39,659 bases of DNA. It comes from Candidatus Kerfeldbacteria bacterium (lineage in GTDB: Bacteria; Patescibacteriota; Patescibacteriia; SBBC01). Each line of letters begins with the position of its first letter. The first letter of the stretch is position 1. The notes under the pieces were generated by a model, which worked only from the letters and a program-made list of their open reading frames with translations, was not told where the DNA came from and ran no database searches. The stretch spans positions 1 through 39,659 of the forward strand of contig JACQKH010000045.1 in assembly GCA_016204585.1 (NCBI GenBank), read 5' to 3'. Made by a program: the position numbers and the translations under genes. Below, one piece after another: positions 6,113-38,551 of this stretch.

Positions 6113-6231
6113 AACATTTGACTTTTGACCATTCGTCTTTGCTCAGGGTCATCCTGAGCTTTGTCGAAGGATGACATGTGACATTTGACAAACGCCTCTA
6201 GTCACACGTCAAACGTCAATGGTCAAATGTT
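6113..6231. repeat. Heptamer-periodic inverted repeat (TGAC/GTCA family) with a nested palindromic insert
   Basis: CATTTGA-CTTTTGA-CCAT[insert ~6133-6171]TGA-CATGTGA-CATTTGAC ... GTCACAC-GTCAAAC-GTCAATG-GTCAAAT, just after the comF stop. Confidence 0.8.
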
Positions 6232-6236
6232 TCCTC

Positions 6237-6866
6237 CTATCCCTTGGCAATAGTCAGGACAGTGATGTGTTTCATTCCTGCTGAACGGAGTACGGCCGCC
6301 ACTTCTGATGATGTGGCACCAGTAGTGAACACATCGTCCACGATTATACCATTTTTCGGCAATTGTCCAAGTCCTGGCTTGAGACGAAATGCAGCTCGGA
6401 CATTAGTCAATCGTTCATCCTCAGCCAGCTCGACCTGGGGTTGGGTGTGGCGAATGCGATCCACCGCCTCGATAAACATCAGATTAAGGCGCTTGGCCAG
6501 AGAACGCGCGATCAGCGTGGACTGATTAAATCCGCGGTTGCGCTGGCGCTTGGGATGTAGCGGCACCGGAACGACCGCGTTGTCAGTCAGCTCACGACCA
6601 AAGGCGGTGGCCAGCGTCTGCCCGATCGGTTCAGCCAGCACCTGTCCGCCGTTGTATTTAAGTTCCTGGATGATTCGTTTGAGCACTGGGATATCGTACG
6701 AACCGAGCGTTAGCAGTTGGTCTACCCGGGCGACCGGCTGCGGGGTCCGTCTGGGTTTGAGCGGGGCCAGACACGGCGCGCAGAGCCAAGCATCCTCCTG
6801 GCCGCAGATCCGGCAGGATGGCGGGAAGAGAAGGTCTAATGCCAGGGTGGAGATTGATGCAAACAT
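6237..6866 (-). CDS. comF: ComF family competence protein (Zn ribbon + phosphoribosyltransferase)
   Basis: LFPPSCRIC..LCAPC, VPVPLH..R...RGFNQS, IIVDDVFTTGAT. Confidence 0.93.
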   Translation of the reverse strand: MFASISTLALDLLFPPSCRICGQEDAWLCAPCLAPLKPRRTPQPVARVDQLLTLGSYDIPVLKRIIQELKYNGGQVLAEPIGQTLATAFGRELTDNAVVPVPLHPKRQRNRGFNQSTLIARSLAKRLNLMFIEAVDRIRHTQPQVELAEDERLTNVRAAFRLKPGLGQLPKNGIIVDDVFTTGATSSEVAAVLRSAGMKHITVLTIAKG

Positions 6867-6915
6867 TGATGGCGTGATTATGCGCCACCTTTGTTGAACG
6901 ATTGTTCGACGCTAT

Positions 6916-9432: not shown

Positions 9433-9585
9433 GGGGTAGTGATGGGGTAGTGAGTAGTTTGGCAGCGCGTACTTTAGTGCGCGGTTATGGTAGTGCGCCT
9501 TTAGTTTTAGGTATTAGCGTCAATTACAAAGTGTAGCAGAAAAGACGGCGGCAGCAAAACGTTGTACCACAGCGGCTTTTCGATG

Positions 9586-10497
9586 TCAAGGATTTTTACT
9601 CGCCGAGTCCATTTGGCGGAGCGCGCGAACCCGCTCCTCGATCGGCGGGTGGGTCATGAAGAGCCGTTTAAGCTTGCGACCAGAGTTGCCGAAAGGGTTG
9701 GTGAAAAACATGTGAGCAGTGGCGTCGTTGGCGGTGGCTAGCGGCCTGGAGTTAAGACTCTGAATTTTTTCCAGCGCCTTGGCCAGACCCTCGGGATATC
9801 TAGTCAACAGCGCGCCCGAAGCATCGGCCAGCAACTCGCGGCGGCGCGAGACTGCAAAATGCACGAGCTGGCCGATGAGCGGAGAGAGAATCAGGAGGAC
9901 AATGCCGATGAGCGCCAGTACGCCGGCGCCGCGATCGCTGCTACGCCGTCCGCCGAAGCGACCGGAGTAGAAGAACCAGCGGGCCAGCAGCGTGACTGCG
10001 TTCACCAGCATCAGCACCAGCATCAGGTAGCGGATGTCGAAGTTCCTGATGTGACTGAGTTCGTGGGCCAGCACTCCCTCAAGTTCTTCGTTGGCGAGCT
10101 TCTCGATCGCACCCGTGGTAACGGCGATCGAGGCGTGCTTTGGATCTCGGCCGGTGGCGAAGGCGTTGATGGAGGGATCGGTTATTAGATAGAGCTTGGG
10201 CATCGGCGTCCCCGCGGCCATGCCCAGATTTTCCACCAGGTTGTAGAGATAGGCATTGTCCGGTTTCGAGATCGGACCTTTCGCGCCGGCGACAGCCAGA
10301 GCGACCCGATCACCGGCGTAGTAACCACCAAGCGTCATGCCTAGAGCGATGAGGAGAGCCAGGAAGAGCCCGCCCAGGCCATAGTCGGTGAATTCGCCGA
10401 TAATCCAGCCGAGCCCGGCCACGAACAGCACAAAGAATGTAAGCAGCAGGGCGCTCTTGAGCTTGTTACGCGAAATGTAGTCGTAGGTCGTGGGCAT
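9586..10497 (-). CDS. htpX: M48 zinc metalloprotease HtpX
   Basis: NAFATG, HELSH, RRRELLAD, THPP..ERV. Confidence 0.93.
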   Translation of the reverse strand: MPTTYDYISRNKLKSALLLTFFVLFVAGLGWIIGEFTDYGLGGLFLALLIALGMTLGGYYAGDRVALAVAGAKGPISKPDNAYLYNLVENLGMAAGTPMPKLYLITDPSINAFATGRDPKHASIAVTTGAIEKLANEELEGVLAHELSHIRNFDIRYLMLVLMLVNAVTLLARWFFYSGRFGGRRSSDRGAGVLALIGIVLLILSPLIGQLVHFAVSRRRELLADASGALLTRYPEGLAKALEKIQSLNSRPLATANDATAHMFFTNPFGNSGRKLKRLFMTHPPIEERVRALRQMDSASKNP

Positions 10498-10506
10498 GAG
10501 TGGGTG

Positions 10507-10575
10507 AGCTTGTAGCTTTTAGCTGATAGGTGGCAGCAAAAAATTGAGCCGCTAAAAGCTAACAGCTACCAGCTA
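10507..10575. repeat. Heptamer-periodic inverted repeat (TAGC/GCTA family)
   Basis: AGCTTGT-AGCTTTT-AGCTGAT-AG ... GCTAAAA-GCTAACA-GCTACCA-GCTAG between lemA and htpX. Confidence 0.8.
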
Positions 10576-11127
10576 GAACTTCACTGCTACCGGCTGTTTC
10601 TCGGCTTCGCCTTCGACCTCGAAGAACTCGCGCGGCTTAAAACCGAACGTTTGAGCGAGCAAATTGGTGGGGAAAGTCTGCTGGCTGGTGTTAAAGTCGC
10701 GAACATTGCCGTTATAGAATCGGCGGGACGCTTGGATTTTATTCTCCGTGTCGCTTAGTTCGTCTTGGAGTTTGGCGAAATTCGCGCTGGCTTTTAACTC
10801 GGGATAGGCTTCGGCGATGGCGAAGATCGACTTAAGAGTTTGCGACAGCGCGTTTTCGGCTTGTGCTTTGTCGTGCGGCGTTTGCGCACCCATGGCCGCG
10901 GATCGCGCTTTGGTAACATTTTCGAACGCTTCGCGTTCGTGCTTAGCGTATCCCTTGACTGTTTCCATCAGGTTGGGAATCAGGTCGTAGCGGCGCTTGA
11001 GCTGAACATCAATATCCGACCACGATTCGTTCGTGCGGTTGCGCAGACTGATCAGCCGGTTGTACATGGTCATGATCCACAGCAGGATCAGCACGATGAT
11101 ACCGACGATTATCCAGGTGATAGTCAT
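10573..11127 (-). CDS. lemA: LemA family protein
   Basis: YN.L..LRN....WSDIDVQLKRRYDLIPNL, E.YPELKA..NF..LQ.EL..TENKI. Confidence 0.95.
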   Translation of the reverse strand: MTITWIIVGIIVLILLWIMTMYNRLISLRNRTNESWSDIDVQLKRRYDLIPNLMETVKGYAKHEREAFENVTKARSAAMGAQTPHDKAQAENALSQTLKSIFAIAEAYPELKASANFAKLQDELSDTENKIQASRRFYNGNVRDFNTSQQTFPTNLLAQTFGFKPREFFEVEGEAEKQPVAVKF

Positions 11128-18364: not shown

Positions 18365-19254
18365 CAAAAGCATTAAAAAACTCTTTCATCATAATCTGGT
18401 TGGTGGCGGCGATTGGGATTTTCCGTTTCAGCCCGTCCGCCTTTTCCAAACCGCTAACCTCCGGCGCCAGCCAGAAGCTGACTGTTTACGAAGGCGTTAT
18501 CACCATTGACCACACCCCTGGCGGAAACATCCTGGAGCTCGGCAACGCCGGCCGGGACATCGCCTCAACCGGCGAGATTTTCGTCCGCCCGGGAAACACC
18601 ACGGCCGGCACCAAGTTTTATGCCGCCAGTCCATCCGAACCGCAAAATCTGTTGCTGACCGGAAGACTGACGGTCAATAAGGGTTTGAACTTTAACGGCC
18701 AATACATTACTGGCTGGACTACCGGCAGCTCCTTCTGGTTGCCCGCGGCCGGCAATTACGTCGAGCCGAACCCGCTGGCTTACGGAGTTCAGTTCAACAG
18801 CGATACCAACGTCTTGGCGAATAACGGCGCAAACCAGAGCGCGCTGTACGTAGTCAACTATGACCTGTCAGGATTGGCCGCCAAGTTCGAATCCCCGCCG
18901 CCAATTAATCAGACAATCAACATCTACGGCAACCTCGAGGCGACCGGAAATATCAGGAGCGGCGCTGAAGGCAACCTGTTTGACGTTTGGACTGACTCGA
19001 ACGACGGATATAAGGCCGCGCCGACCGGACCTGATTATCTGGATTTGCTGGATGCGGACTTGCTCGACGGGGTTAACCTTGACCTGGCCAAGGGAATCGA
19101 CCGCAATCCTCCTCAGAATCCGGCTTGTGATATTAATCTTGAGGCCTCATCTAACATGTCGTGTCTGTGCCGCGCAAATCCCAACAATCCGGCTGTATTC
19201 GAGTGCATCGAACTCACCTGCAACAGACCGGGAGATTGTGTATCATCCTCCTAA
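18361..19254 (+). CDS. Secreted fibre-like surface protein, family B paralogue 3
   Basis: ATGA-coupled start at 18361; QKLTVYEGV, ELGNAGRDIASTG.IFVRP, VWTDSNDG...LDADLLDG, small Cys-rich tip. Confidence 0.75.
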   Translation: MTKALKNSFIIIWLVAAIGIFRFSPSAFSKPLTSGASQKLTVYEGVITIDHTPGGNILELGNAGRDIASTGEIFVRPGNTTAGTKFYAASPSEPQNLLLTGRLTVNKGLNFNGQYITGWTTGSSFWLPAAGNYVEPNPLAYGVQFNSDTNVLANNGANQSALYVVNYDLSGLAAKFESPPPINQTINIYGNLEATGNIRSGAEGNLFDVWTDSNDGYKAAPTGPDYLDLLDADLLDGVNLDLAKGIDRNPPQNPACDINLEASSNMSCLCRANPNNPAVFECIELTCNRPGDCVSSS

Positions 19255-19262
19255 TAGCCACC

Positions 19263-25185: not shown

Positions 25186-25214
25186 TAGACAGATAGCTTT
25201 TTTTGTGCTATAAT
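25186..25214 (+). promoter_or_regulatory. Promoter of the pilus assembly operon
   Basis: TAGACA, N17, TATAAT with a TG extended -10. Confidence 0.75.
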
Positions 25215-25266
25215 TTTTGCATGGAATGTTACTTGCCGAGCACCGTTTTTGCGGGTGGTGGTATAC

Positions 25267-26376: not shown

Positions 26377-26381
26377 AAAAC

Positions 26382-27587: not shown

Positions 27588-28288
27588 AACTTCCGCCGAT
27601 AGCTCGCAAACTAATAACGCGGCTGATGACCTCTTACTTCCGCTATTTGGTCTGGTCAGTGGTCGGGGTGGTGTTGCTGCTAGGATTGTTAATGGTTATT
27701 AAACCACAGTTTGAGAACGTTCGTTTGGTCGGTGTCCTGGCCCTCGAGGAAAAAAAACAGCAACTCAAGGATCGGACTACCTACTACGACAAGGTCAAAG
27801 CAATGGTCGAGAAGTACCGATCGCTGTCTGGCGAAGAGACCGAAAAAATTTCGCGAATCCTTCCATCGCGACCGGAGGTTTCCGATCTTTTCCATTCCCT
27901 CGAGTCACTGGCGACTGCTTCTGGCATGACGCTCGAATCGGTGGCGGTCACGAAGGGCTCGAGCGCGGCGACGGCCGCCCAACCGAGCGGCGCCGCATCG
28001 GCCCGCCGGGAGGCGACGGCCGGAGCGCAAAACAGAACCGCCTCGTCCGATACCGTACAATTTCTGGATGTTAATTTGAGCGTCAGCGGACCGACTGATT
28101 ACGCCACGTACAAGCGATTACTGCAGAACATTGAGAAAAGTCAGCGCTTGTTTGACGTCGGCAGCATCGCCTACAAGCCCTCCGAGACGAAGGTCCAGTT
28201 AGCCGGCGAGGAATCGGCTACCGGCAATACCATCACCATCACCTTTAAAACATACTATCTCGAGCCAGCCGGATCTTCGCCTTCCTAA
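27584..28288 (+). CDS. pilO: Type IV pilus assembly protein PilO
   Basis: TM helix, coiled coil, ILP..P....L...L..LA..SGM.L, V.G..Y......L..IEK..RL.DV, TYY. Confidence 0.8.
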   Translation: MKLPPIARKLITRLMTSYFRYLVWSVVGVVLLLGLLMVIKPQFENVRLVGVLALEEKKQQLKDRTTYYDKVKAMVEKYRSLSGEETEKISRILPSRPEVSDLFHSLESLATASGMTLESVAVTKGSSAATAAQPSGAASARREATAGAQNRTASSDTVQFLDVNLSVSGPTDYATYKRLLQNIEKSQRLFDVGSIAYKPSETKVQLAGEESATGNTITITFKTYYLEPAGSSPS

Positions 28289-28293
28289 CAATT

Positions 28294-28608
28294 ATGGCCC
28301 TCGCCCAAAAAAGAAATACCCGACAGTCGACATTGCTCTTGATTGTGCTGGCCGCCATCATTATCGCCGGCATCATCGTCTATTACTCGCTCCGGCCGAA
28401 GACGACGACCACTGGCCCCGGCCGATCAGGTGGCAGCGCCAACGACCTCGAAACGTTTACTGATTTCGGGGAAGATCTTTTTACCGAGGACCAATTTAAG
28501 TCACTGCGTAATTTTTCTAACACCAATATATCTACCCCGCCGTCACCGCCAATTGTCGCACCGCCGGGCGATTCGACCGGGAACCCTGATCCGTTTCGTC
28601 TGCAGTAA
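28294..28608 (+). CDS. Small single-TM pilus-locus protein (PilP position)
   Basis: TM helix, F..L..F and C-terminal GNPDPF; located between pilO and pilB. Confidence 0.65.
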   Translation: MALAQKRNTRQSTLLLIVLAAIIIAGIIVYYSLRPKTTTTGPGRSGGSANDLETFTDFGEDLFTEDQFKSLRNFSNTNISTPPSPPIVAPPGDSTGNPDPFRLQ

Positions 28609-28612
28609 ATCT

Positions 28613-30379
28613 ATGCCGCCGACCGTTGCCACATCGTCCATTGGACCAGAGACGACACTCGTCGATCTGCTGCTTAAGGATGGCCTACTCACTGAGGATC
28701 AAGTGGATTCCCTTCTGCAGGAGAGTCAACGAACGCAGCAGCCGGTCAACGAATTGCTCGAGACTAGAAACCTTGTTCGTGAGGAAGACCTCGTCCGTGA
28801 AAAGAGTAAACTCTATAACATCCCATACATCGATCTGTTCGGCCGGGTTGTTCGGGCAGAAATCCTGAACGTGGTATCAAAAGAACTGGCGGAGAATTAC
28901 CATATGGTGGCGTTCAACAAGAGTGAGAACGAGCTGTCGGTGGCGATGGTTGATCCGTCGAACTTCCGAGCGCTCGAGGCGATCGAGTTCATCGCGCGGA
29001 AGAACCACTTCCGCATCAAGTACTACCTGACGTCGCAGTCGAGCCTGAAGTACATCATCCGCCAGTACGAGAGCCTGTCCGCGGAGGTGGAAGAAGCCCT
29101 TAAGGGCGCGGAGCAGGAGTCCGAGCTCCAGAAGTCAATGTTAAAAGTTGAGGAGAAGGGGCTGGAAGAAGTCGTTAAAACCGCGCCGGTCTCGAAGATG
29201 GTTTCCGTTATCCTCCGCCACGCCGTCGAAGGCAAAGCCTCGGACGTTCACATCGAACCGGTCGGCGACGAGACGCGAGTCCGCTTTCGGATCGATGGCA
29301 TCCTTCACACTTCGCTGGTATTACCCCGCAACGTCCATCAAGCCATCGTCGCCCGGGTTAAAGTTTTATCAAATCTAAAGATCGATGAAACGCGCATTCC
29401 GCAAGACGGCCGTTTCCGGATGGTCATCGAGGGTCACGACATTGACTATCGAATCTCGACTCTGCCGCTGGTGAACAACGAGAAAGTGGTGATGCGAATT
29501 CTCGACACCTCGGAGAACTTGACCAATCTTGACGTCCTGGGTTTTGACGGCAAGACGATGCAAGCCATGAAAGAAAATGTCAAAAAGTCGCACGGCATGT
29601 TCCTGAGCACTGGGCCGACCGGCTCCGGCAAGTCAACGACGCTCTACGCCCTGCTGGACATCCTGAACGAGGAGTCGGTCAACATCGTGACGCTGGAAGA
29701 TCCGGTCGAGTACTTCATGCGGGGTATCAATCAATCGCAAGTTAATCCGGAGGTCGGGTTGACCTTCGCGGCCGGACTTCGGTCAATCCTGCGGCAGGAC
29801 CCCGACATCGTCATGGTCGGTGAGATTCGCGATAACGAAACGGCCGAGCTGGCCGTCCACGCCGCCCTGACTGGCCATATCGTCTTCTCCACCCTCCACA
29901 CCAACGACGCTTTCGGCGCCATCCCCCGTCTGATCGACATGAAGATTGAGCCGTTTCTCATCGCCTCGTCATTGAACGTGGTGATGGCTCAGCGGTTGGT
30001 GCGTCGCGTCTGTCACCACTGCATCAAGGAGGCCAAGATACCGGAATTGCTAGAGAAGGAGGTTTGGCAAGAGATTACCAATGTCGGCGAGAAGAACGTG
30101 CCGCCAGGAATCAAGCTGACAAAACCCCTCCGGTTCTTCCAGGGCCAGGGATGCGTTCGCTGCGAGAACTCCGGCTACAAAGGACGGATCGCCATCGCCG
30201 AAGTGCTGACCGTGACCCCGGAGGTGAAGCGAATTATCGTCAGCGGCGGAAATATAGTCGATAACCTGCGCGAGGAGTTCAAGCATCAAGGGATGTTCTC
30301 GATGCGACAAGACGGAATTTTCAAGGCGTTACGCGGATTTACCACGGTCGAGGAAGTCTGGGATGCGACTAGATCGTGA
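28613..30379 (+). CDS. pilB: Type IV pilus extension ATPase PilB/GspE
   Basis: ASDVHIEP, GPTGSGKSTT, TLEDPVE, LRQDPDIVMVGEIRD, STLHTN, tetra-Cys motif. ATG at 28613. Confidence 0.95.
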   Translation: MPPTVATSSIGPETTLVDLLLKDGLLTEDQVDSLLQESQRTQQPVNELLETRNLVREEDLVREKSKLYNIPYIDLFGRVVRAEILNVVSKELAENYHMVAFNKSENELSVAMVDPSNFRALEAIEFIARKNHFRIKYYLTSQSSLKYIIRQYESLSAEVEEALKGAEQESELQKSMLKVEEKGLEEVVKTAPVSKMVSVILRHAVEGKASDVHIEPVGDETRVRFRIDGILHTSLVLPRNVHQAIVARVKVLSNLKIDETRIPQDGRFRMVIEGHDIDYRISTLPLVNNEKVVMRILDTSENLTNLDVLGFDGKTMQAMKENVKKSHGMFLSTGPTGSGKSTTLYALLDILNEESVNIVTLEDPVEYFMRGINQSQVNPEVGLTFAAGLRSILRQDPDIVMVGEIRDNETAELAVHAALTGHIVFSTLHTNDAFGAIPRLIDMKIEPFLIASSLNVVMAQRLVRRVCHHCIKEAKIPELLEKEVWQEITNVGEKNVPPGIKLTKPLRFFQGQGCVRCENSGYKGRIAIAEVLTVTPEVKRIIVSGGNIVDNLREEFKHQGMFSMRQDGIFKALRGFTTVEEVWDATRS

Positions 30380-30381
30380 AG

Positions 30382-30460
30382 TAGCTTATAGCTTGCTAGC
30401 TTCATTAGCTTGTTGGGAGGTTGCCAAAAAAGCTAAAAAGCTAGGAAGCTAACAGCTAAC
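30382..30460. repeat. 7-9-nt periodic inverted repeat (TAGC/GCTA family)
   Basis: TAGCTTA-TAGCTTGC-TAGCTTCAT-TAGCTTGT ... AAGCTAAA-AAGCTAGG-AAGCTAAC-AGCTAAC after the pilB stop. Confidence 0.8.
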
Positions 30461-30470
30461 ATTAACATCT

Positions 30471-30872
30471 ATGCCGAAAAAAACAACTCATGATGCGTCG
30501 GGAAAACCAAGAATCCTGGTAGTCGAGGATGATTCTTTCCTGGCCGGGATGTACGTCACAAAACTCGGACTCGAGGGATTCAGTGTTGACCTAGCAAGCG
30601 ACGGCCGGGAGGGTCTGAAGAAGGCCAAGGACGGAAAACCGGATCTGGTCCTCCTCGACATCGTCCTGCCGGTGATGGACGGTTTCACTATGCTCGAGCA
30701 CATGAAGTCCGATCCTGAATTGCGCAGCATCCCGGTGGTCCTCCTGACAAACCTCGGCCAGAAGTCTGACGTGGAGAAGGGATTAAACTTAGGCGCGGCT
30801 GACTACCTCATCAAGGCGCACTTCATGCCGAACGAGGTGATCGAGAAGATCAAGAGAATCCTGAACGGCTAA
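30471..30872 (+). CDS. Single-domain response regulator (REC)
   Basis: ILVVEDD, PDLVLLDIVLP.MDG, LLTN, GAADYLIK. Confidence 0.92.
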   Translation: MPKKTTHDASGKPRILVVEDDSFLAGMYVTKLGLEGFSVDLASDGREGLKKAKDGKPDLVLLDIVLPVMDGFTMLEHMKSDPELRSIPVVLLTNLGQKSDVEKGLNLGAADYLIKAHFMPNEVIEKIKRILNG

Positions 30873-30876
30873 TCGC

Positions 30877-31950
30877 GTGTCGACCAGCGAATCCATCATC
30901 ATCCAGCGGATCCTGACGACGGCCGCCGAGTATCGGGCCAGCGACCTGCACCTGACCACCGGTAATCCGCCCATTCTCCGCGTTGACGGGAAGTTGGTCA
31001 TCCTCGAGCAGGAGCAAATGGTGACCCCGGACTTCATGGACGTCGTGAAAGAGATGTTCCTGACACCCGAGCAACAGGCGGTCCTCAAACAAGATCGCGA
31101 GATCACCGTCGCCTACACCCTGGAAAACCGCATCCGATTCAAGGTTTCGATGTTTTTCCAGCGCGGTTACTTGGCCGCCAGTTTGCGTTTGATATCGAAC
31201 GAAATTAAACCCCTCCGCGAACTAGGACTGCCGCCGATCGTCCAGGAATTTACCAAGCTGACCAAAGGCCTGCTCCTAATCACCGGGCCTTTTGGCTCGG
31301 GTCGCACGGCCACGGTCGCGGCCGTCGTCAATGAAATCAACAAAACCAGGTCAGCTCACGTCATCACTATCGAAAAACCGATCGAACACGTCTATGTGAA
31401 CGATCGGAGTTTCATCGAGCAGCGCGAGGTCGGTCGAGACACCAAGTCGTTTGAGCAGGCGCTGGAGACCGCCATCCGCGAGGATGTGGACGTGATTGTG
31501 GTGTCAGAAATGGTTGAGCCGCCGGTCATCCAAGCGGTCCTGACCGCGGCCGAGTCTTCACGATTGGTGATTTCCACGATGAATACCGATTCGGTGATGA
31601 AAACAGTTGAAAGCATCATTAACAGCGCGCCAGCCGACCTCGAGGTAAAGACCCGGCAACAGCTGGCCGGGACGCTCCAGGGCATTGTCAGCCAGCGTCT
31701 ATTGCCGCGGGTCGGCGGCGGTCGGATTCTGGTGGCCGAGGTGATGGCGCCGTCTCCGCCGATCCGGGCGGTCATCCGCGACGGGGCGCTCTTCCAGCTG
31801 CAGAATATTCTCCAAACGAGCCGAGAGAGCGGGACTATTTCCCTTGATCGTTCCCTGGCCGAGCTCGTTAAGACCGGCGAAATCTTAGTGGACGATGCGC
31901 TCGTTTACGCCGTTGATCCCAATAATCTTAAGATGTGGACGCGATCCTAA
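30877..31950 (+). CDS. pilT: PilT/PilU-family retraction ATPase homologue with degenerate catalytic motifs
   Basis: ASDLHL..G.PP.LRVDG, QREVG.DT.SF, SQRLLP; but GPFGSGRT, TIEKPIE, VIVVSEM and STMNT. Confidence 0.85.
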   Translation: MSTSESIIIQRILTTAAEYRASDLHLTTGNPPILRVDGKLVILEQEQMVTPDFMDVVKEMFLTPEQQAVLKQDREITVAYTLENRIRFKVSMFFQRGYLAASLRLISNEIKPLRELGLPPIVQEFTKLTKGLLLITGPFGSGRTATVAAVVNEINKTRSAHVITIEKPIEHVYVNDRSFIEQREVGRDTKSFEQALETAIREDVDVIVVSEMVEPPVIQAVLTAAESSRLVISTMNTDSVMKTVESIINSAPADLEVKTRQQLAGTLQGIVSQRLLPRVGGGRILVAEVMAPSPPIRAVIRDGALFQLQNILQTSRESGTISLDRSLAELVKTGEILVDDALVYAVDPNNLKMWTRS

Positions 31951-31951
31951 G

Positions 31952-32024
31952 AAGCTTATAGCTTCATTAGCTTCGTTAGCTTGTTAGGGCGTTCTAAAAA
32001 GCTAATGAAGCTAGCGAAGCTAAC
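31952..32024. repeat. 7-9-nt periodic inverted repeat (TAGC/GCTA family)
   Basis: AGCTTAT-AGCTTCATT-AGCTTCGTT-AGCTTGTTAG ... CTAAAAAG-CTAATGAAG-CTAGCGAAG-CTAAC between pilT and pilC. Confidence 0.8.
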
Positions 32025-32035
32025 TATCTGCTCCA

Positions 32036-33247
32036 ATGGCCATTTTCGACTACAAGGCGAAGGATTTGAGCGGTCAGTCAATCAGCGGCGCGGTCGAAGC
32101 GCCGAGCGAAGCGGTGGCCCTCGACGTGCTGAAAGAAAAGGAGCTATTTGTTCTGTCCCTCAAGGAACGAAAGCGCATCACCCTCTTTCAATCCTCACTT
32201 GGCTTCCTCCAGCGCGTTCCGCGCAAGGACGTGGTGCTGTTTGCGCGGCAGCTGGCCGTGATGATCTCGGCCACGGTGCCGATCGTCCAAGCCCTCCGCA
32301 TCCTGGTCAGGCAGACCGAAAACGTCAACTTCAAGATTATTATTTCCGAGATCGCCGACGAGGTGGACGGCGGAGCGAAGCTGTCCGCCACGTTGGCCCG
32401 CTACCCGAGCGTTTTTTCTCAGTTCTTCGTGCACATGATCCGCTCCGGCGAAACGACCGGCAAACTGGACGAGACGTTGAACTACTTGGCCGATCAGCAG
32501 GAGAAGGATTACGACCTGATTTCGAAAATTCGCGGGGCCATGATCTACCCGGCCTTCGTGCTCGGCGGCATTCTGGTGGTCGGCGCGGCCATGATGATTT
32601 TCGTCATTCCCAACCTGACCAACATTCTGCAGGAAGGCGGCGGCGAGCTGCCGGCCAGCACTAAAGCGGTCATCGCCACCTCGAATTTTTTCAAGCATCA
32701 GTGGTGGGTTCTCCTGATCGTCCTGGTGACTATTCCGGTCCTCCTCCGATTCGCCATAAAAACTGAGGTTGGCCGTCATCAGTTCGATCGCCTGAAGTTC
32801 CGGATGCCGATCTTTGGGCAGATTTTCCAGAAGATTTATCTGGTCCGGTTTTCGCGCTCGCTCTCGACGCTGGTGGTTTCCGGCATTCCGGTGACGCGCG
32901 GCTTGGAAATCGTGGCTGACGTCGTGGGCAACACCGTCTATCACGACCTGACCCGGGAATCAATAACCGAGATCGAGGCCGGCAACTCGATTGCCACCGC
33001 CTTCGTTAAATCCAAGGACATCCCGCCGATGCTGCCGCAAATGATGGTGGTCGGCGAGCAGACCGGAAAGCTCGACCTTATCCTCGACAAACTGGCGAAC
33101 TTCTACGCCAAAGAGCTGGAAAACATGATTGCCAACCTGACCAGCCTGATCGAGCCGTTGATCCTGGTGATCATGGGCGTCGGTGTGGCCGTGATGGTTA
33201 TGGCCATCTTATTGCCGATGTACAACCTGTCGCAGGCGATAACGTAG
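32036..33247 (+). CDS. pilC: Type IV pilus platform protein PilC (GspF family)
   Basis: FARQLAVMI, GETTGKLD, AMIYP, GEQTGKLD, LIEP, ILLPMY. Confidence 0.95.
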   Translation: MAIFDYKAKDLSGQSISGAVEAPSEAVALDVLKEKELFVLSLKERKRITLFQSSLGFLQRVPRKDVVLFARQLAVMISATVPIVQALRILVRQTENVNFKIIISEIADEVDGGAKLSATLARYPSVFSQFFVHMIRSGETTGKLDETLNYLADQQEKDYDLISKIRGAMIYPAFVLGGILVVGAAMMIFVIPNLTNILQEGGGELPASTKAVIATSNFFKHQWWVLLIVLVTIPVLLRFAIKTEVGRHQFDRLKFRMPIFGQIFQKIYLVRFSRSLSTLVVSGIPVTRGLEIVADVVGNTVYHDLTRESITEIEAGNSIATAFVKSKDIPPMLPQMMVVGEQTGKLDLILDKLANFYAKELENMIANLTSLIEPLILVIMGVGVAVMVMAILLPMYNLSQAIT

Positions 33248-33255
33248 GTAGGCAG

Positions 33256-33281
33256 TTAGGTATTAGGTTTTAGGTGTTAGG
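33256..33281 (+). repeat. Solo heptamer arm (TAGG family)
   Basis: TTAGGTA-TTAGGTT-TTAGGTG-TTAGG just after the pilC stop. Confidence 0.75.
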
Positions 33282-33303
33282 GGGTTGTGAGGGAGTGGAT
33301 GAG

Positions 33304-33380
33304 TAGGTAGGCGGCATCCGCTAACTCCCCTCCACATCAGTGGAGGGGTGGCGACGCCCGTGGCGGAGCCGGGGTGGGTT
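33304..33380 (+). repeat. REP-like double-hairpin element, copy 1
   Basis: TAGGTAGGCGGC...CTAACTCCCCTCC-N8-GGAGGGG...GGGGTGG; related to copies at 34160-34220 (inverted) and 34218-34295 (direct). Confidence 0.7.
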
Positions 33381-33407
33381 GCGAAACCTCGAAAATCGTG
33401 CTATACT
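33379..33407 (+). promoter_or_regulatory. pilA promoter
   Basis: TTGCGA, N17, TATACT with a TG extended -10; SD-like AAGGGGGTGA before the ATG. Confidence 0.7.
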
Positions 33408-33577
33408 ACACTAAGATTCAGCCTGTGGACAATTCTCACGGCTGTAAAAAACTCGTTCGTTCTTGATACTTAAGCCATTCCGAGTAAAAGCTTGTCTTCG
33501 TTCAAGAGATTCAGCAGGCCTGCATCCGTTGAACGAAACGATTCTCGGAAAAAACCGAAAGGGGGTGACGAAACAAC

Positions 33578-34096
33578 ATGAATAATGCAAAGAAAGGGTT
33601 TACGCTCATCGAGCTCTTGGTGGTCATCGCGATCATCGGCATTTTGTCAACCATCGGTCTCGTCGCCCTGAACGGGGCGCGGGCTAAGGCCCGGGACGCG
33701 CGGCGCACCGCTGACATGCGATCCTACGCTTTGGCTTATACCAGTTATGCGGATACGGCGACGTCATTCGATACTGGCGTTGGTTGTGCACCTGAAACTA
33801 ACATCAGTGCTTGTGGAGCATTGCAAACGGCCGCCTCCTCCACGTCTTTACCAAATGATCCGACTACAGGAGCGGCAGCCGCCACAAACTCTAATGCAGC
33901 TTGTGTTGCTGCTGATAAAAATAATCCAGCTTGTAATGCCCTCGCTAACTGGGCAAGGACTGGTGGGGCGTATGCAAACTACACACTTGCATTCGAAGAT
34001 GTTAACGCGTTCTCTATCCTTCTGGAACTAGAAACGGCCGGTACCTGGGGAGCTGCGGGGTTGCATTTGTACCAGCAATCCGGCACCTTCCTGTAA
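33578..34096 (+). CDS. pilA: Major type IV pilin (prepilin)
   Basis: KKG|[28 protein letters not shown]; own promoter, SD and terminator. Confidence 0.9.
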
Positions 34097-34112
34097 TTCG
34101 CGCTTGGTATTT

Positions 34113-34149
34113 GGAAACAAAAAAGGGCTCTGGCCCTTTTTTGTTTTCC
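34113..34149 (+). terminator. Intrinsic terminator (potentially bidirectional)
   Basis: ACAAAAAAGGGC-TCTG-GCCCTTTTTTGT after pilA. Confidence 0.85.
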
Positions 34150-34159
34150 TTTGATGTTG

Positions 34160-34295
34160 AACCACCCCCACCGCGACCTACGTCGCGGTGACCCCTCCAT
34201 GAGATGGAGGGGAGAGTTAGGTAGGCGGCTACCGCCACTTCTCCTCCTTGCAAAGGAGGAGTACCCGTCGCGTTACACGCGACGGGGGAGGTGGT
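34160..34295. repeat. Two oppositely oriented REP-like double-hairpin elements
   Basis: CACCGCGAC-CTAC-GTCGCGGTG with CCCCTCCAT-GAG-ATGGAGGGG; CTCCTCCTT-GCA-AAGGAGGAG with CCCGTCGCGT-TAC-ACGCGACGGG. Confidence 0.75.
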
Positions 34296-34387
34296 CAATC
34301 AACGCCGCCCGCCGCTTCCTTGACCTAGGCGACCATTCCAGTTTACACTGCCTACACATTCGGTGGTGACGAAAAAGGACTTAACTT

Positions 34388-34687
34388 ATGTCAACAAAAC
34401 AACGCGGCGCAACCACGACCGACGTCAAAACGCTCGGGTCAAGATTAGAAGCGACGATCAAAAGGAACACGCGCGAGATTGTCGCGCACTTCAACGCCAG
34501 CCAGGGTGAGCAGAACAAATGGATAAAGGGTGAATTCGAAAAGGTTGACCAGCGTTTTGACGAAATACGCGTCGAACTAGAAGCGATTAAAGAAATGTTG
34601 GCCATGAAACAAGAACTGCGTAATCTCGTGCGCGAACTGAAGGCCAAAGGCATCGAGCTCGACGAGTCGCGGATTTTCGCGCGGTAG
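34388..34687 (+). CDS. Small coiled-coil hypothetical protein
   Basis: 99 aa, AAGGA SD, FEKVDQRFDEI heptads; upstream TTGACC-N18-TACACT (34320-34349). Confidence 0.7.
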   Translation: MSTKQRGATTTDVKTLGSRLEATIKRNTREIVAHFNASQGEQNKWIKGEFEKVDQRFDEIRVELEAIKEMLAMKQELRNLVRELKAKGIELDESRIFAR

Positions 34688-34694
34688 ATTAGGC

Positions 34695-34721
34695 AGCTTC
34701 CTAGCTTCATTAGCTTGTTAG
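34695..34721 (+). repeat. Solo periodic arm (TAGC family)
   Basis: AGCTTCCT-AGCTTCATT-AGCTTGTT-AG after the stop codon. Confidence 0.7.
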
Positions 34722-34754
34722 AGGGCGGAGGAGCATTTGTGATATACTGGATTT

Positions 34755-35174
34755 ATGTTTATCCCTGACCGCCGCGGTCTCGGCCTTATCTCCACCCTCC
34801 TGATTCTCACGGTGGTGGCTGCGTTTTTGGCCGGGGTGGGGTTATTGTTGAGCCAGGAGCGGGCGCGGGTGCGGGACGCCCGGCGCATCGCCGACATGGT
34901 GCGGGTGCAGTTTGCCTTTGAAACGTTGTTCCGCGAAAAGGCCAGTTATAGCGAGGCGGCGTCCGGGTGCGGACAGGTTGAAGTTTTGGTTTCAACGTGT
35001 GCGTTGACCACCTACCTGCCGCAGGTTCAGAATTTGAAAGATCCGGGGAGGTACGCCTACCGAGTTGCCAAAGTGCCGGATGAGAGGGATTACGCTATCA
35101 GCTTTGTGCTGGAGCGGGCGTACGAGAGCTTGGCCAAGGGGAAACACGTGTTGAGCAAGGATGGGGTTCGGTAG
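34755..35174 (+). CDS. Pilin-like protein with non-canonical N-terminus
   Basis: RRG|LGLISTLL hydrophobic helix without E5; RARVRDARRIADM, C..C, DP, Y.ISFVLE, paralleling pilA. Confidence 0.75.
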   Translation: MFIPDRRGLGLISTLLILTVVAAFLAGVGLLLSQERARVRDARRIADMVRVQFAFETLFREKASYSEAASGCGQVEVLVSTCALTTYLPQVQNLKDPGRYAYRVAKVPDERDYAISFVLERAYESLAKGKHVLSKDGVR

Positions 35175-35178
35175 GAGC

Positions 35179-35203
35179 TAGGTTTTAGGTATTAGGTTTT
35201 AGG
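35179..35203 (+). repeat. Solo heptamer arm (TAGG family)
   Basis: TAGGTTT-TAGGTAT-TAGGTTT-TAGG after the stop codon. Confidence 0.75.
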
Positions 35204-35242
35204 TTGTTTGAAGCATAGTCCGGCGCGAGAATCCGCAACGGT

Positions 35243-35801
35243 TGTAGCCCGCCCATTTATGGGCCTAGCACGAACAAGCCGTGATTGAACCATGCGTGGG
35301 TTGAAACCTGTCAGATTGCCGCAGTACGATTACCGAACCGACGGTTATTATTTTGTGACGGTTGTTTCAAGAAACAGAAAAAATATCTTTCAGAATTCCG
35401 AAAATATCATCGAGGAAGAGCTGGAGAACGTAGCAAAACAAATCCAGGGGTTGTCCGTGGATACAAAAATTGTCATGCCGAACCATGTTCATCTGATTTT
35501 AGTTTTAGAGAATTGTGCATTACCGCTGGGGGAGATTATCAGAAGGTGGAAAGCAAAAGTATCCCATTCATTAGGTTACTCTGTTTGGCAGCCGAATTAT
35601 TACGAACACGTTATTCGAGACGAGGAAGCATTGAACCGAATACGCGAATACGTCATTTATAATCCGGAGCTTGAGATTTTAAAATTCGAACAGTTCTATC
35701 CACGCGATGCCGATAAATCGGCGGGCTACAAAAAGATGCCGACCCCGCCCGCCGAAGTCCCGCATGGCGGGACGGGGCGGGTGAATCGGTGGGCTACATG
35801 A
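35243..35801 (+). mobile_element. RAYT element with flanking REP-like inverted repeats
   Basis: TGTAGCCCGCCCATTTATGGGC (35243-35264) and inverted GCCGATAAATCGGCGGGCTACA (35709-35730); third interrupted copy at 35738-35798. Confidence 0.8.
35292..35801 (+). CDS. REP-associated tyrosine transposase (Y1/IS200-like, RAYT)
   Basis: RLPQYDY, YFVTV, MPNHVHLI (HUH), WQPNYYEHVIRD, YVIYNP. Confidence 0.9.
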   Translation: MRGLKPVRLPQYDYRTDGYYFVTVVSRNRKNIFQNSENIIEEELENVAKQIQGLSVDTKIVMPNHVHLILVLENCALPLGEIIRRWKAKVSHSLGYSVWQPNYYEHVIRDEEALNRIREYVIYNPELEILKFEQFYPRDADKSAGYKKMPTPPAEVPHGGTGRVNRWAT

Positions 35802-36601
35802 ATATTGTCATCGGGGTTGTTGTTTTTGTTCTGGGAACCGCGATTGGCAGTTTTTTGAACGTGGTGATTTACCGTTTGCACGCGGGCGGCTCGCCGCTCC
35901 GCGGCCGGTCGCGTTGTCCGCACTGTAAACATCAGCTGGCTGCTGACGATCTGATACCGGTTCTTAGTTTTGTCATGCTGCGCCGGCGCTGTCGCTACTG
36001 CCATAAACCGATTTCTTGGCAGTACCCGCTAGTGGAGCTCAGTATGGGTTTAGTGGCGCTGACCATGATGCTCCGCTACGGACTGTCGGTTGAGTCATGG
36101 GTGGGAACGGTGCTGGGAGCGTTCCTCTTAGTGATTTTCGTTTATGATCTCCGTCACCAGTTAATCCTCGACCGGGTCAGCATTCCGGCCATGGTCGCGG
36201 CGTTGCTAGGTTCGCTTCTGCTTAAGCGACCGCTGACCGATATCGCCATCGGCGGCGTGGCTGGCGCCGCTTTTTTCTTTCTGCAGTACGTGTTCTCGAA
36301 CGGTCGCTGGATCGGCGGCGGCGACATCCGGCTAGGCGCCGTATTGGGGTTGGCCTTGGGCTGGAAGCTGCTGGCGGTCAGCTTGGTACTGGCGTATTTT
36401 GGCGGTTCAACCGTCGCTTTATTTCTAATCCTGACGAAGCGCCGATCATGGTCAAGCCAAATTCCGTTCGGCACGTTCTTGAGTTTGGCCGGCATCGTAA
36501 CTTTCTTGTGGGGTAACGAGATTCTGGTCTGGTACTTGCACGGCGGATTTTTCGATTGGTTCGTCGGCGCGTTCCTGCGGTTTTACAATCCGGCGGTCTG
36601 A
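35798..36601 (+). CDS. pilD: Prepilin peptidase/N-methyltransferase
   Basis: GSFLNVVIYRL, RSRCPHC, CRYC...ISWQYP, YD, GGGD, IPFG.FL. ATG at 35798. Confidence 0.95.
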   Translation: MNIVIGVVVFVLGTAIGSFLNVVIYRLHAGGSPLRGRSRCPHCKHQLAADDLIPVLSFVMLRRRCRYCHKPISWQYPLVELSMGLVALTMMLRYGLSVESWVGTVLGAFLLVIFVYDLRHQLILDRVSIPAMVAALLGSLLLKRPLTDIAIGGVAGAAFFFLQYVFSNGRWIGGGDIRLGAVLGLALGWKLLAVSLVLAYFGGSTVALFLILTKRRSWSSQIPFGTFLSLAGIVTFLWGNEILVWYLHGGFFDWFVGAFLRFYNPAV

Positions 36602-36610
36602 GGAGAAGAG

Positions 36611-37327
36611 TTGGCAGATTGGAGATTGGAGTCGGGAGTTGACGGTTGTCGAATCACAGAGGAAAATAGGGTAGTGGATACTTCGTCAAATGTCAAAGGT
36701 CAAACGTCAAGAGTCAAATGTCGTTCTGGGTTCACCCTACTCGAACTCCTCATCAGCATGGCCATCTTTGCGATTCTCGGGACCTTCACGGTAATGAGTT
36801 TTCGCAGCGCGGGACAGTTGAATAATCTCCGGCAGGCCGCCAATGAGCTGGTGTCGAATCTCCGGCTGGCCCAGTCCATGTCACAGTCCGGGGCAACGGT
36901 GAATAGTTGTGACGATGGGGGTGAAAAATACAAACTCTGCCCTGACGCAACTTGTTCCATCTGTTCTGAGAAAGCGCCAAAAGGAGGGTATGGTATAAGC
37001 GGCGGTGGTCAATTTGGTGCGTGGTCATCGTTGCCGACGTCAAGGTATATGATATTTGCGGAGTTGTTGGGAGATGGGTATGATCTAAACGATGATCCAA
37101 CGATATTTACCGTTGATTTACCGGCTCAAACCTCCATTTCAATGGTAGATTCGAGCGTGATGGGATTGCATTTTCTCAAGGATGGTCACGCCTACGATTT
37201 TTTTGGCAATATAAGCAATCAATATTTTTGCATCTCTCACAGTAACTTTCCAAACGTGTATCGCAAAGTCACCCTCATCGGCGCCACCGGCCAGATTCAG
37301 GAGGAGGCGGTAGCAGCATGTCCGTAA
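36611..37327 (+). CDS. Minor pilin (FimT/GspH-like)
   Basis: G|FTLLELLISMAI, L..AANEL.SNLRLAQ..S, GYGI. Start uncertain (TTG 36611 with SD, or GTG 36674). Confidence 0.82.
   Translation: MADWRLESGVDGCRITEENRVVDTSSNVKGQTSRVKCRSGFTLLELLISMAIFAILGTFTVMSFRSAGQLNNLRQAANELVSNLRLAQSMSQSGATVNSCDDGGEKYKLCPDATCSICSEKAPKGGYGISGGGQFGAWSSLPTSRYMIFAELLGDGYDLNDDPTIFTVDLPAQTSISMVDSSVMGLHFLKDGHAYDFFGNISNQYFCISHSNFPNVYRKVTLIGATGQIQEEAVAACP
36685..36722 (+). repeat. Heptamer arm (GTCA family) inside a prepilin leader
   Basis: GTCAAAT-GTCAAAG-GTCAAAC-GTCAAGA-GTCAAAT-GTC, translated as SNVKGQTSRVKC. Confidence 0.8.
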
Positions 37328-38091
37328 AACATCAAGCTGATCTTCCCAAAGGGCAGGGCCTGCTCGAGACCGTCATCGGCATCGGCGTGATTATCGCCGG
37401 TACAATCGGCAGCGTTACTCTGATCGCGGCAACGGTTACGGCCGGTCGCGCCACCAACAACAAAGTTATCGCCGCCAGCTTGGCGCGTGAAGGGATCGAG
37501 GCGGTTCGCAACATCCGCGATGCGAATTGGCTACGAATTCAGGCGAACGAGGATACGGACTTAAGCATAGCTGACATTCAGCTTCCCAGCTCGTTTGACG
37601 GGTTGTACGATCAGACCAGCAATTACCACGTCGCGGTCCCCGGGTTCAGCTGGGCCGGTAACAGTTGGACCGTTGGCTCGGTACCGGATCCAGCCATGGA
37701 CTTTAATGACACGAACAGTTTTACGACGAAGATGTGTGGAAAGGTTGGGACTCAGCCGCATGTCTGTTCGGAGATTTACCAGGAGGTAGCGACACAAGCA
37801 TTTTATCAGACCGACAAAGGTTTTTCCGCAAGCGTTCCGCCGGCCACACGATTCAAGCGTTTAGTGAATGTCAATCCGATTTGCCGGGAAGACGATGCGC
37901 CAGCCGATGGCATACCGGACGTCGGCTTTAACGCAGCGGAGAGGATTGAAGCGCTGAACGGTTCTACTTGCAGTGCCACTGAGATTCTCGTCGGCCTCCA
38001 GGTTATTAGCAAGGTCTGTTGGGACGACTGCACTGCTCAGAAAACCTTTCAACTTGAAGACCGGCTGTATAATTGGAAATACGTGAAATGA
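37318..38091 (+). CDS. Minor pilin (PilV-like)
   Basis: KG|QGLLETVIGI, A..LAREGIEAVRNIRD.NW, FKR.V, V.SKV.W, LYNWK. Confidence 0.82.
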   Translation: MSVKHQADLPKGQGLLETVIGIGVIIAGTIGSVTLIAATVTAGRATNNKVIAASLAREGIEAVRNIRDANWLRIQANEDTDLSIADIQLPSSFDGLYDQTSNYHVAVPGFSWAGNSWTVGSVPDPAMDFNDTNSFTTKMCGKVGTQPHVCSEIYQEVATQAFYQTDKGFSASVPPATRFKRLVNVNPICREDDAPADGIPDVGFNAAERIEALNGSTCSATEILVGLQVISKVCWDDCTAQKTFQLEDRLYNWKYVK

Positions 38092-38098
38092 GGTGGGT

Positions 38099-38551
38099 AG
38101 GTTTTAGGTAATAGGTTTTAGGAGTTAGTTTTTCTGGGAGTATGAGTATGCTATCAAATTCGTATAAAGAACTTACGGTATGGCAGAAGTCAATGGAGTT
38201 GGTAACTGCCGTTTACAAATTGACTGAACAGTTTCCGAAAGAGGAGTTATATGGATTGACATCCCAGCTAAGGAGATCGGCGGTTTCCATTCCATCAAAT
38301 ATCGCGGAGGGAAAATACCGAGGAAGTAAAAAAGACTATGTACAATTTCTCAGAATAGCATTTTCTTCCGGTGCTGAACTGGAAACACAAATCGAAATCG
38401 CTAAACGACTTCCATCAACAAAAAATTTGGGTTTTATTGACATTGAAGCAACCCTTGAGGAAGTTATGAAAATGCTGAATGCCTTAATTAAGAAACTGAT
38501 TCAATAGCAACGATATAGTTCTTAACACCTAAAACCTAACACCTAAAACCT
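38099..38551. repeat. Heptamer-periodic inverted repeat (TAGG/CCTA family) enclosing the four-helix-bundle gene
   Basis: Left arm AGGTTTTAGGTAATAGGTTTTAGGAGTTAG (38099-38128); right arm CTTAACACCTAAAACCTAACACCTAAAACCT (38521-38551). Confidence 0.85.
38142..38507 (+). CDS. Four-helix-bundle protein (23S rRNA IVP-like family)
   Basis: SYKELTVWQKSM.L...VY.LT..FPKEE.YGLTSQLRRSAVSIPSNIAEG..R....Y.QFL.IA..S..ELETQ; AT-rich DNA. Confidence 0.93.
   Translation: MSMLSNSYKELTVWQKSMELVTAVYKLTEQFPKEELYGLTSQLRRSAVSIPSNIAEGKYRGSKKDYVQFLRIAFSSGAELETQIEIAKRLPSTKNLGFIDIEATLEEVMKMLNALIKKLIQ

Follow-up and report, generated by a model that had tools for sequence, protein, structure and literature searches.

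The repetitive sequences called STRR (short, tandemly repeated) consist of 7-bp repeats that can form hairpins between genes of one cyanobacterial operon; a role in transcript stability or in translational coupling has been put forward for them, and neither is proven in the accessible text of the source (PMC2670836). A second class of stem-loop, the intervening sequence (IVS) of ribosomal RNA (rRNA), is found in Salmonella at helices 25 and 45, where RNase III excises it, according to the available part of PMC2672173. The TAACTGA repeats of Beggiatoaceae, Cyanobacteria and Bacteroidetes are intergenic, lie a few bases from start codons, carry stop triplets in the unit and are patchily distributed across phyla; in the text consulted they consist of a single unit in perfect, direct copies, and inverted partners are all but absent (169 direct sets and one indirect set; MacGregor 2015, PMC4679880). 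Here we describe arrays of imperfect heptanucleotide units that recur, mostly at gene junctions, along a 39,659-nucleotide (nt) stretch of DNA (the window; contig JACQKH010000045.1) from a Candidatus Kerfeldbacteria bacterium. Their closest known counterparts are the STRR hairpins and the rRNA IVSs. The TAACTGA repeats share the features just listed and are more distant, as the arrays described here fall into many families, have imperfect units and form inverted arm pairs. These arrays are probably copies, or single-arm remnants, of IVS-like and STRR-like palindromic elements built of heptad repeats, whose transcripts RNase III would process.

The host is a groundwater bacterium of the candidate phyla radiation (Patescibacteria), represented by a metagenome-assembled genome (MAG) of 1.04 Mb in 80 contigs with 55% G + C. 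The window is contig C14 of this genome, and its PilB is 80–83% identical to Candidatus Kerfeldbacteria MAG proteins. Across the genome, a scan of repeat periods placed period 7 far above chance. A 4-mer recurred three times at this period at 260 positions, compared with 19, 67, 26 and 25 positions for periods of 5, 8, 10 and 11, and a test at a fixed length of 21 nt returned 63 arrays at period 7 versus 0–17 at the other periods within 4–13; period 14, a harmonic of 7, gave 29. With a looser threshold there were 85 period-7 arrays against 8–9 in each of three block shuffles, and clusters of at least four copies of one 4-mer at 6–9 nt spacing numbered 142 in the real and 11 in the shuffled sequence. 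At pilB loci sampled across the radiation (80 loci, 597 kb) period 7 was again the commonest, with 46 arrays in 27 loci.

Merging the detectors yielded 124 arrays in the host genome. Seventy-four are AT-rich and mostly intergenic, and 11 of these fall in the window, which makes up 3.8% of the genome; the other 50, being GC-rich or inside open reading frames (ORFs), were treated as noise or coding repeats. The arrays lie on many contigs and between many kinds of gene, which does not bear out the tie to envelope operons proposed in an earlier account of the window made from its letters (the sequence-only reading). That account had also recognised three unit families. We could assign 64 arrays to at least eight, among them, beyond TTGAC, TAGCT and TTAGG, the families GAATTAN, GGAGNTT, AAGATTN, GGTTTRG and AAGTTNN. 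Removal of five arrays located more than 80% inside ORFs left the family-assigned set of 59 used below. Imperfect arrays can escape the strict 4-mer detector; one such hairpin, in the related genome G017, was recognised by eye alone. Rfam searches at gathering scores matched three tRNAs only within the window, and four array-rich contig pieces gave no match. The idea that the array-dense contigs C9 and C37 are rRNA was ruled out by Rfam, and some C9 hits are coding sequence. On C9 (4147–4184) three GAATTAN-type units (21 nt, frame-preserving) stand in frame within a SufS-like ORF, as an in-frame insertion or by chance.

All arrays listed by the sequence-only reading were recovered. In the window each comprises 3–6 units with a fixed core of 4–5 nt (TTGAC, TAGCT or TTAGG) and 2–3 free bases, and comparison of the units upheld the described pattern of fixed core and variable spacer. 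Tandem Repeats Finder assigns period 7 to most and period 8–9 to the arms at 30427–30452, 31959–31982 and 31999–32024. The arrays and the features that accompany them are given below, with G000 denoting the host's own genome and G002, G015, G017, G018, G019 and G020 its relatives in the same order.

6113–6133: TTGAC arm block of AACATT-TGAC units, the outer part of the 3′ arm on the minus strand; folds with 6222–6231.
6134–6171: 38-nt insert that splits the TTGAC arm; has its own GC-rich hairpin and resembles a repeat flanking a GIY-YIG gene in G015 (L087).
6172–6189: TTGAC arm of three units (Tandem Repeats Finder).
6201–6231: TTGAC arm, in GTCA orientation on the plus strand; the minus-strand 5′ arm, 5 nt past the stop of gene 6237–6866.
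9501–9517: weak TTAGG-like trace of 2–3 units, found by reading the sequence and missed by the detectors; its weakness had been recognised before.
10505–10530: TAGCT arm; the minus-strand 3′ arm, 7 nt ahead of the start of gene 9586–10497.
10551–10576: TAGCT arm whose first unit, read on the minus strand, provides the TAG stop of gene 10573–11127.
25116–25147: TTGAC 5′ arm of five units, 3 nt past the stop of a 1983-residue gene; hairpin of −25.3 kcal/mol, z −6.0.
25149–25179: TTGAC 3′ arm of GTCAA units with an AATGTT end.
30382–30411: TAGCT 5′ arm, 2 nt past the pilB stop; hairpin of −36.4 kcal/mol, z −8.3.
30431–30461: TAGCT 3′ arm, ~10 nt ahead of the response-regulator ATG.
31953–31982: TAGCT 5′ arm of 8–9-nt units, 2 nt past a TAA stop; hairpin of −37.1 kcal/mol, z −7.9.
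31999–32024: TAGCT 3′ arm (fold and Tandem Repeats Finder).
33245–33281, plus strand: lone TTAGG array whose first TAG is the stop of the pilC-like gene 32036–33247.
34695–34721, plus strand: lone TAGCT array, 7 nt past the stop of ORF 34388–34687.
35172–35205, plus strand: lone TTAGG array whose first TAG is the stop of gene 34755–35174; a RAYT-like gene is next.
36611–36638, plus strand: G-rich period-7 block of GATTGGA units, 9 nt past the stop of a prepilin-peptidase gene.
36685–36722, plus strand: lone GTCAA array of five units, in frame within the coding region of a prepilin leader.
38098–38128: TTAGG 5′ arm of a cassette; flank inverted-repeat score 43.
38142–38507, plus strand: four-helix-bundle gene in the loop (PF05635, 132 bits; TIGR02436).
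38523–38551: TTAGG 3′ arm of ACCTAA units, abutting the next gene; flank inverted-repeat score 43.

Two of these sites have neighbours of note. The array at 36685–36722 encodes part of the prepilin leader (..SNVKGQTSRVKCRSG|FTLLELL..; window 36611–36790) in the stop-free orientation, so that it has been absorbed into the coding region. A small GIY-YIG nuclease gene (5740–6015, minus strand) lies just downstream of the TTGAC hairpin at 6113–6231, and a second copy, at C31:7728–7949, is placed likewise.

The arms are organised in a consistent way. Within the family-assigned set 20 arms have a partner of the same family, which gives 14 paired loci, and 39 are lone. In all 14 paired loci the stop-bearing, G/T-rich arm is the 5′ one and its A/C-rich complement the 3′ one; one locus, C23:272/364, may have the opposite arrangement. 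The element therefore reads alike on both strands, as it is palindromic, with a G/T-rich, C-poor 5′ arm and an A/C-rich 3′ arm. This polarity extends beyond the host, G exceeding C in the 5′ arm of 19 of 26 order-level and 22 of 24 phylum-level arm pairs. Folding energies of twelve hairpin regions range from −20.8 to −52.7 kcal/mol (z from −3.7 to −8.3 versus shuffles), equally on both strands; a thirteenth fold, of a single arm by itself, gave no stable structure. The outer ends of TTGAC-family arms are conserved (AACATT-TGAC ... GTCA-AATGTT), and units within one site are more similar to each other than are units from different sites.

Like STRRs, then, the arrays consist of tandem 7-nt units that are in excess, intergenic and able to form hairpins between genes. 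They differ from STRRs in their host, which is patescibacterial and not a filamentous cyanobacterium, in their units (TTGACNN, TAGCTNN, TTAGGTN and others) and in the imperfection of these units, which have 2–3 free positions. STRRs reportedly also occur inside the RNase P RNA gene, to go by the title of a cited paper. MITEs (miniature inverted-repeat transposable elements) are a poor match, as the loops of eight TTGAC-family hairpins have no internal sequence in common.

The loop of the element at 38098–38551 holds a gene. The protein of ORF 38142–38507 belongs to PF05635 and TIGR02436 and is related to the solved structures 2gsc and 2rld, each of which was deposited with five chains, and more weakly to Avd, the accessory protein of diversity-generating retroelements (DGRs). 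Two of the three clear PF05635 copies in the host genome stand between inverted heptad arms, with flank scores of 43 and 45; the third scores 25. The sequence-only reading had suggested that the arrays co-occur with four-helix-bundle genes, and the link holds in a more direct form, since the genes lie between the arms. Among 12 relatives in the order, inverted repeats scoring above 24 flank 26 of 35 PF05635 genes (37 copies, two of which were dropped for short flanks). The cut-off of 24 corresponds to the 95th percentile among 194 small-gene controls, and the highest score among 300 random windows was likewise 24; the thresholds were set on the host genome, and matched controls belong to the phylum set only. 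For that set, the 29 best-scoring copies, one from each of 29 other genomes, arms surround 24 of the 29 genes as compared with 3 of 112 windows shifted by 800–1000 nt in the same loci, with period 7 scoring best for 19 of these 24.

PF05635 is common in these small genomes. Of 151 sampled Patescibacteria genomes 96 have it, versus 1 of 14 well-known controls, and genomes below 1 Mb contain up to 17 copies. Plasmid-borne copies (41 records) are mostly those of Nostoc and its relatives, and period-7 arms are present at six of eight plasmid loci (five of seven cyanobacterial, one of one in Riemerella; the hosts are Nostoc, Calothrix, Pseudanabaena, Geminocystis and Riemerella). Heptad arrays of like build thus flank PF05635 genes in the very phylum in which STRRs were described. 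Heptad palindromes often enclose a PF05635 gene, and do so in three phyla. The unit sequences differ nearly everywhere, while the period, the inverted symmetry and the polarity are conserved. On a plasmid of Pseudanabaena galeata (L164, 45974–46912) a four-helix-bundle gene sits between cas6 and cas4, flanked by more than 15 heptamer units, AAAAGCT upstream and AAAAGCC downstream.

Related elements also interrupt rRNA. No 23S rRNA gene was found in the host's own assembly. The 23S gene of G015, from the same family, measures 3805 nt for a 2925-position model and contains a TTGAC-family hairpin with AACATTTGAC...GTCAAATGTT ends of the window type. That of G002, from the same order, contains two heptad hairpins of ~107 and ~80 nt, each inserted exactly in the terminal loop of a model hairpin (RF02541 583/584 and 1218/1219), positions that we take to be helices 25 and 45, the classical IVS sites. 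The unit family of the G002 insertions (GTTGTAN/GATTTAA) recurs in the host between two genes at C19:199–280. The elements resemble IVSs in being stem-loop insertions with inverted ends in whose loop a PF05635 gene is optional. They differ in that the window copies lie between protein-coding genes, outside rRNA, and in the heptad periodicity of the arms, which does not appear in the accessible text of the published IVS description.

All 21 genomes of the order have the RNase III gene, rnc, which in the host is located at C4:15508–16209. Three of them, representing two genera, carry a PF05635 cassette immediately upstream of rnc; the junction is the same each time, and the unit family of the arms differs from one to the next:

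G000, C4:15193–16209: cassette with a truncated copy of the gene.
G019, C2:24473–25330: cassette.
G018, C28:4513–5368: cassette whose gene has an internal stop.

This adjacency, which may stem from one inherited insertion, is suggestive only.

The pilus cluster of the window is syntenic in G017, G020 and G015, which belong to the host's family and to two other genera, and this allowed the same junctions to be compared:

pilB to response regulator: TAGCT hairpin in the window; TTAGG hairpin in G017; lone TTGAC arm at the same point in G020; 23 nt and no array in G015.
pilT-like gene to pilC: TAGCT hairpin in the window; empty in G017 (17 nt) and in G015 (11 nt).
pilT-like gene to pilC in G020: TTAGG arms enclosing a gene that is PF05635-like and contains an internal stop.
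Giant gene to pilM: TTGAC hairpin in the window; none in G017, G020 or G015.
Cassette site 38098–38551: PF05635 gene with TTAGG arms in the window; PF05635 gene (73% identical) with TAGCT arms in G020; G017 and G015 do not cover it.

Turnover at gene junctions is quick, and elements have been gained, lost or rewritten between genera. Four-unit TTGAC arrays are present in six of six other genomes of the host's family, in none of 12 of a second family and in one of two of a third, and a control with the reversed pattern found none; TTAGG and TAGCT arrays are patchy across the 21-genome order. Candidate excision joints that skip 38128–38523 or 35207–38529, seen among DNA contigs from four runs, were rejected: they match over 23–24 letters per side at much higher depth and were read as other loci or organisms with the same arm family.

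Each element consists of two inverted arms of 3–6 imperfect 7-nt units, sometimes of 8–9 nt, around a loop of any content. Once transcribed, its stem of 25–35 bp would be a substrate for RNase III, as with rRNA IVSs elsewhere, and the enzyme would excise the element from rRNA and cut polycistronic mRNA between cistrons. Such cutting could take the harm out of an insertion, or put it to use by uncoupling the mRNA stability of neighbouring cistrons. The stop codons would at most aid tolerance, in that any frame running into the element is terminated immediately and the stem is not melted by ribosomes. Of the options named in the sequence-only reading, element remnants and mRNA processing fit best, given the 23S insertions and the flanking of PF05635 genes. 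According to the available part of PMC4423207, intergenic stem-loops set subunit stoichiometry after selective RNA processing and stabilisation, which offers a working analogy only for elements known here from DNA alone; no RNA run is listed as containing the window.

Several points weigh against this account. The majority of arms, 39 of 59, lack a partner and cannot form a stem; any function of theirs would not be exerted as hairpins, and they are best read as element remnants. Arrays occupy 44 of 730 gaps between co-directional genes, 6 of 106 between divergent and 5 of 113 between convergent ones, and so are not limited to operon-internal positions. Spacer bases between the arms pair at 51 of 75 positions (68%) versus 56% in shuffles (p ~0.03), and the stems are regularly mismatched; an origin of the arms by exact inverted duplication was discarded, as spacer complementarity exceeds chance only weakly. 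Since the loops of the eight TTGAC-family hairpins mentioned above share no sequence and no mobilising enzyme was identified, it is presence or absence at orthologous sites alone that speaks for mobility, and growth in situ by slippage, with rewriting of the units, is possible. The label stop-bearing or complementary is defined in part by the stops themselves, the gene ends come from a crude ORF caller, and the genomes compared are kin and not independent, so that no test was applied to counts of co-occurrence.

Of the rival explanations, one holds that the units are DNA or RNA sites for an oligomeric protein, the candidate being the Avd-like four-helix-bundle protein. The arms accompany PF05635 genes in three phyla, the nearest solved relatives have five chains each, and the family is kin to the DGR accessory protein Avd in the available part of PMC10053308. 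Among the order genomes, nine have both TTGAC, TAGCT or TTAGG arrays and PF05635, one has arrays only, three have the gene only and seven have neither, figures that come from related genomes. However, the units differ completely between genomes, even in orthologous cassettes, while the proteins stay similar, which argues against sequence-specific binding, and in the host 14 paired loci and 39 lone arms face three genes. We regard protein-binding arrays as unlikely.

A second explanation is translational coupling, in which the hairpin hides the A/C-rich leader downstream and a ribosome terminating near the 5′ arm opens it, which would make translation of the second gene depend on that of the first. 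The geometry is suitable. Arrays typically lie 0–10 nt from a gene end, with 5′ arms 0–7 nt past stops and 3′ arms 0–12 nt before starts, and array junctions such as that from pilB to the response regulator have no Shine-Dalgarno motif. Coupling was proposed for the cyanobacterial STRR hairpins, and TAACTGA heptamers directly upstream of starts were proposed as translational signals, in the accessible texts of PMC2670836 and PMC4679880. Yet the empty orthologous junction is likewise without a Shine-Dalgarno motif, 39 of the 59 arms are lone, and elements are also found within rRNA, in gaps of divergent or convergent genes, and with a gene enclosed in the loop. This explanation, too, has only a small chance of being right.

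Third, the stops might be what is selected, kept so as to end translation in three frames after a gene as a fail-safe against read-through or frameshifting in packed operons. The sequence-only reading had pointed to such stacks. In the stop-bearing orientation 48 of 59 arrays do contain stops in all three frames, compared with 24% of composition-matched shuffles and 5% of random 38-nt intergenic pieces; in the complementary orientation 25 of 59 still do. Most arrays begin near stop codons, as that reading had said, those at 25116, 30382, 31953, 34695, 38098 and, on the minus strand, 6231 being 2–7 nt past one; the array at 36685–36722 follows none, as it is inside the prepilin ORF. The TAG of the first unit is the stop of the gene itself in three window cases (33245, 35172 and, on the minus strand, the gene that ends at 10573). 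The first arm carries TGA or TAG as described, to which we add that in the TAGC and TAGG families stops (TAA) are present in the complementary arms too.

Position and orientation relative to genes are non-random, as the sequence-only reading had it. Of the lone arms found no more than 30 nt from a stop codon, 16 have the stop-bearing orientation and 3 the other; at the same distance from a start, 10 have the A/C-rich orientation and 9 the other (Fisher p = 0.04), and seven of those nine stop-bearing arms fill short gaps touching both gene ends. This rule is already given by a fixed hairpin polarity between stop and start together with the loss of one arm. The 26 order-level arm pairs from relatives, whose 5′ and 3′ arms were defined independently of stops, show 5′ arms with TAG:CTA at 32:3, TGA:TCA at 23:2 and TAA:TTA at 21:34. 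As TAG and TGA are enriched, TAA is not, and G mostly exceeds C in these arms, the general property is a C-poor 5′ arm, and three-frame stops arise because a C-poor unit of only T, A and G recurs at a period coprime with 3. G-rich families nearly or wholly free of stops also exist (GATTGGA at 36611–36638; GGTTTGG/GGAGGTT units), elements lie in rRNA genes, where translation is irrelevant, and orthologous junctions in sister genomes are without any array. Stacked stops are probably a by-product of arm composition, and selected stop stacks are quite unlikely to explain the arrays. The converse, that stops are the cause of the C-poor arm because they would end entering frames and keep ribosomes off the stem, is possible. 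Polarity with arm loss, and C-poor units at a coprime period, suffice in place of the shared stop code that had been suggested; the observation behind that suggestion is confirmed, and its interpretation is partly supported.

Fourth, the arrays could be neutral, functionless and immobile repeats that accumulate by replication slippage in permissive non-coding DNA. Among long simple repeats, those of heptanucleotides are the most frequent in many bacteria, and polymerase slippage was proposed as their cause (Mrazek 2007, as summarised in the available part of PMC4679880), and the greater likeness of same-site units is what slippage would produce. Against it, the units are imperfect around a fixed core, which, as the sequence-only reading argued, sets them apart from slippage microsatellites of perfect units; arms of one family form inverted pairs of a single polarity, and TTGAC-family arms have conserved outer ends. 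Contigs at the host's own depth from three samples span arrays without gain or loss of units, although rare variants could be hidden; with the imperfect units, this also separates the arrays from phase-variable simple repeats. Slippage further leaves the association with PF05635 and the rRNA loop sites unexplained, and we consider it very unlikely.

The least probable explanation, that the arrays are unusual terminators or attenuators without a U-tract, draws on the stability of the stems and on the hairpin at 25116–25179, placed between the end of the long gene and the best promoter-like site, but is countered by the absence of any heptad array among 25 terminator-like sites listed in 20000–39659, by the position of many hairpins inside operons a few bases from both genes, by the lack of enrichment in convergent gaps and by the occurrence within rRNA genes. 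The same scan did find a classical intrinsic terminator (GC stem and T-run) at 34113–34148, behind the pilin gene 33578–34096, in keeping with the earlier view that the arrays are no canonical terminators.

More widely, it is conceivable, though we put it forward tentatively and with more doubt than confidence, that heptad hairpins and PF05635 genes make up one unrecognised kind of element in Patescibacteria, Cyanobacteria and Bacteroidota, which inserts in rRNA helices and gene gaps, is tolerated because RNase III of the host excises or cleaves it as RNA, and whose loop protein aids spread or protection, possibly through an action on the heptad stem or on RNase III. Cyanobacterial STRRs, sporadic 23S IVSs and the PF05635/TIGR02436 family would then possibly be one phenomenon, and a single element, if real, would account at once for the STRRs, the origin of rRNA IVSs and the function of PF05635. 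For the annotation of candidate phyla, such elements would account for much puzzling intergenic sequence, for ORFs with extended ends and for insertions in rRNA. In the literature searched, which left out most subscription journals so that a prior description is possible, we found nothing on heptamer hairpins in Patescibacteria, on a link between PF05635 and heptamers, or on a link of STRRs to PF05635 or to 23S sites.

Genes for potential mobilising enzymes were also considered. The elements share with repetitive extragenic palindromic (REP) sequences and REPINs, which are associated with RAYTs (REP-associated tyrosine transposases), the form of short palindromic intergenic repeats, and a RAYT-like tyrosine transposase gene (35292–35801; NF047646 at 74.8 bits for a cut-off of 80; PF01797) adjoins the lone array at 35172–35205. 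This gene is bounded by inverted GTAGCCCGCC / GGCGGGCTAC motifs (35244–35253, 35720–35797) with only three exact genomic copies and has no heptad arms. In G015 this junction holds a small GIY-YIG gene, in G020 a lone TAGCT array only. The different inverted motif and its three copies, together with heptad loops and units that are not conserved, place the elements outside the REP/REPIN-RAYT system, in contrast to which they have no conserved full-length sequence. RAYT-like enzymes were likewise rejected as mobilisers, as each of the five Y1 genes in the genome has other flanking repeats; two of the five follow a lone heptad array immediately, and one more lies within ~450 nt of such an array. 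No link to arrays was found for the two reverse transcriptases (C40:7623–8777 and C19:10062–10670). The reverse-transcriptase gene on C40 adjoins a weak PF05635/Avd-like hit and looks like part of a DGR.

Other features of the window bear less directly on the arrays. ORF 19161–25112 (1983 residues), which precedes the pilM–pilB pilus cluster, has no Pfam match, and its relatives in sister genomes are 31–39% identical. The best sigma-70-like promoter of the region lies before pilM at 25186–25214, just after the hairpin at 25116–25179 (TAGACA, 17 nt, TATAAT, with an upstream TG; 11 of 12 positions match); TTGAC units were dismissed as −35 boxes, as the promoter scan flagged no array. A 52-nt tandem repeat at 4188–4306 (2.3 copies, 84% matches) overlaps the tRNA gene 4139–4225 and may be a partial duplication of it.

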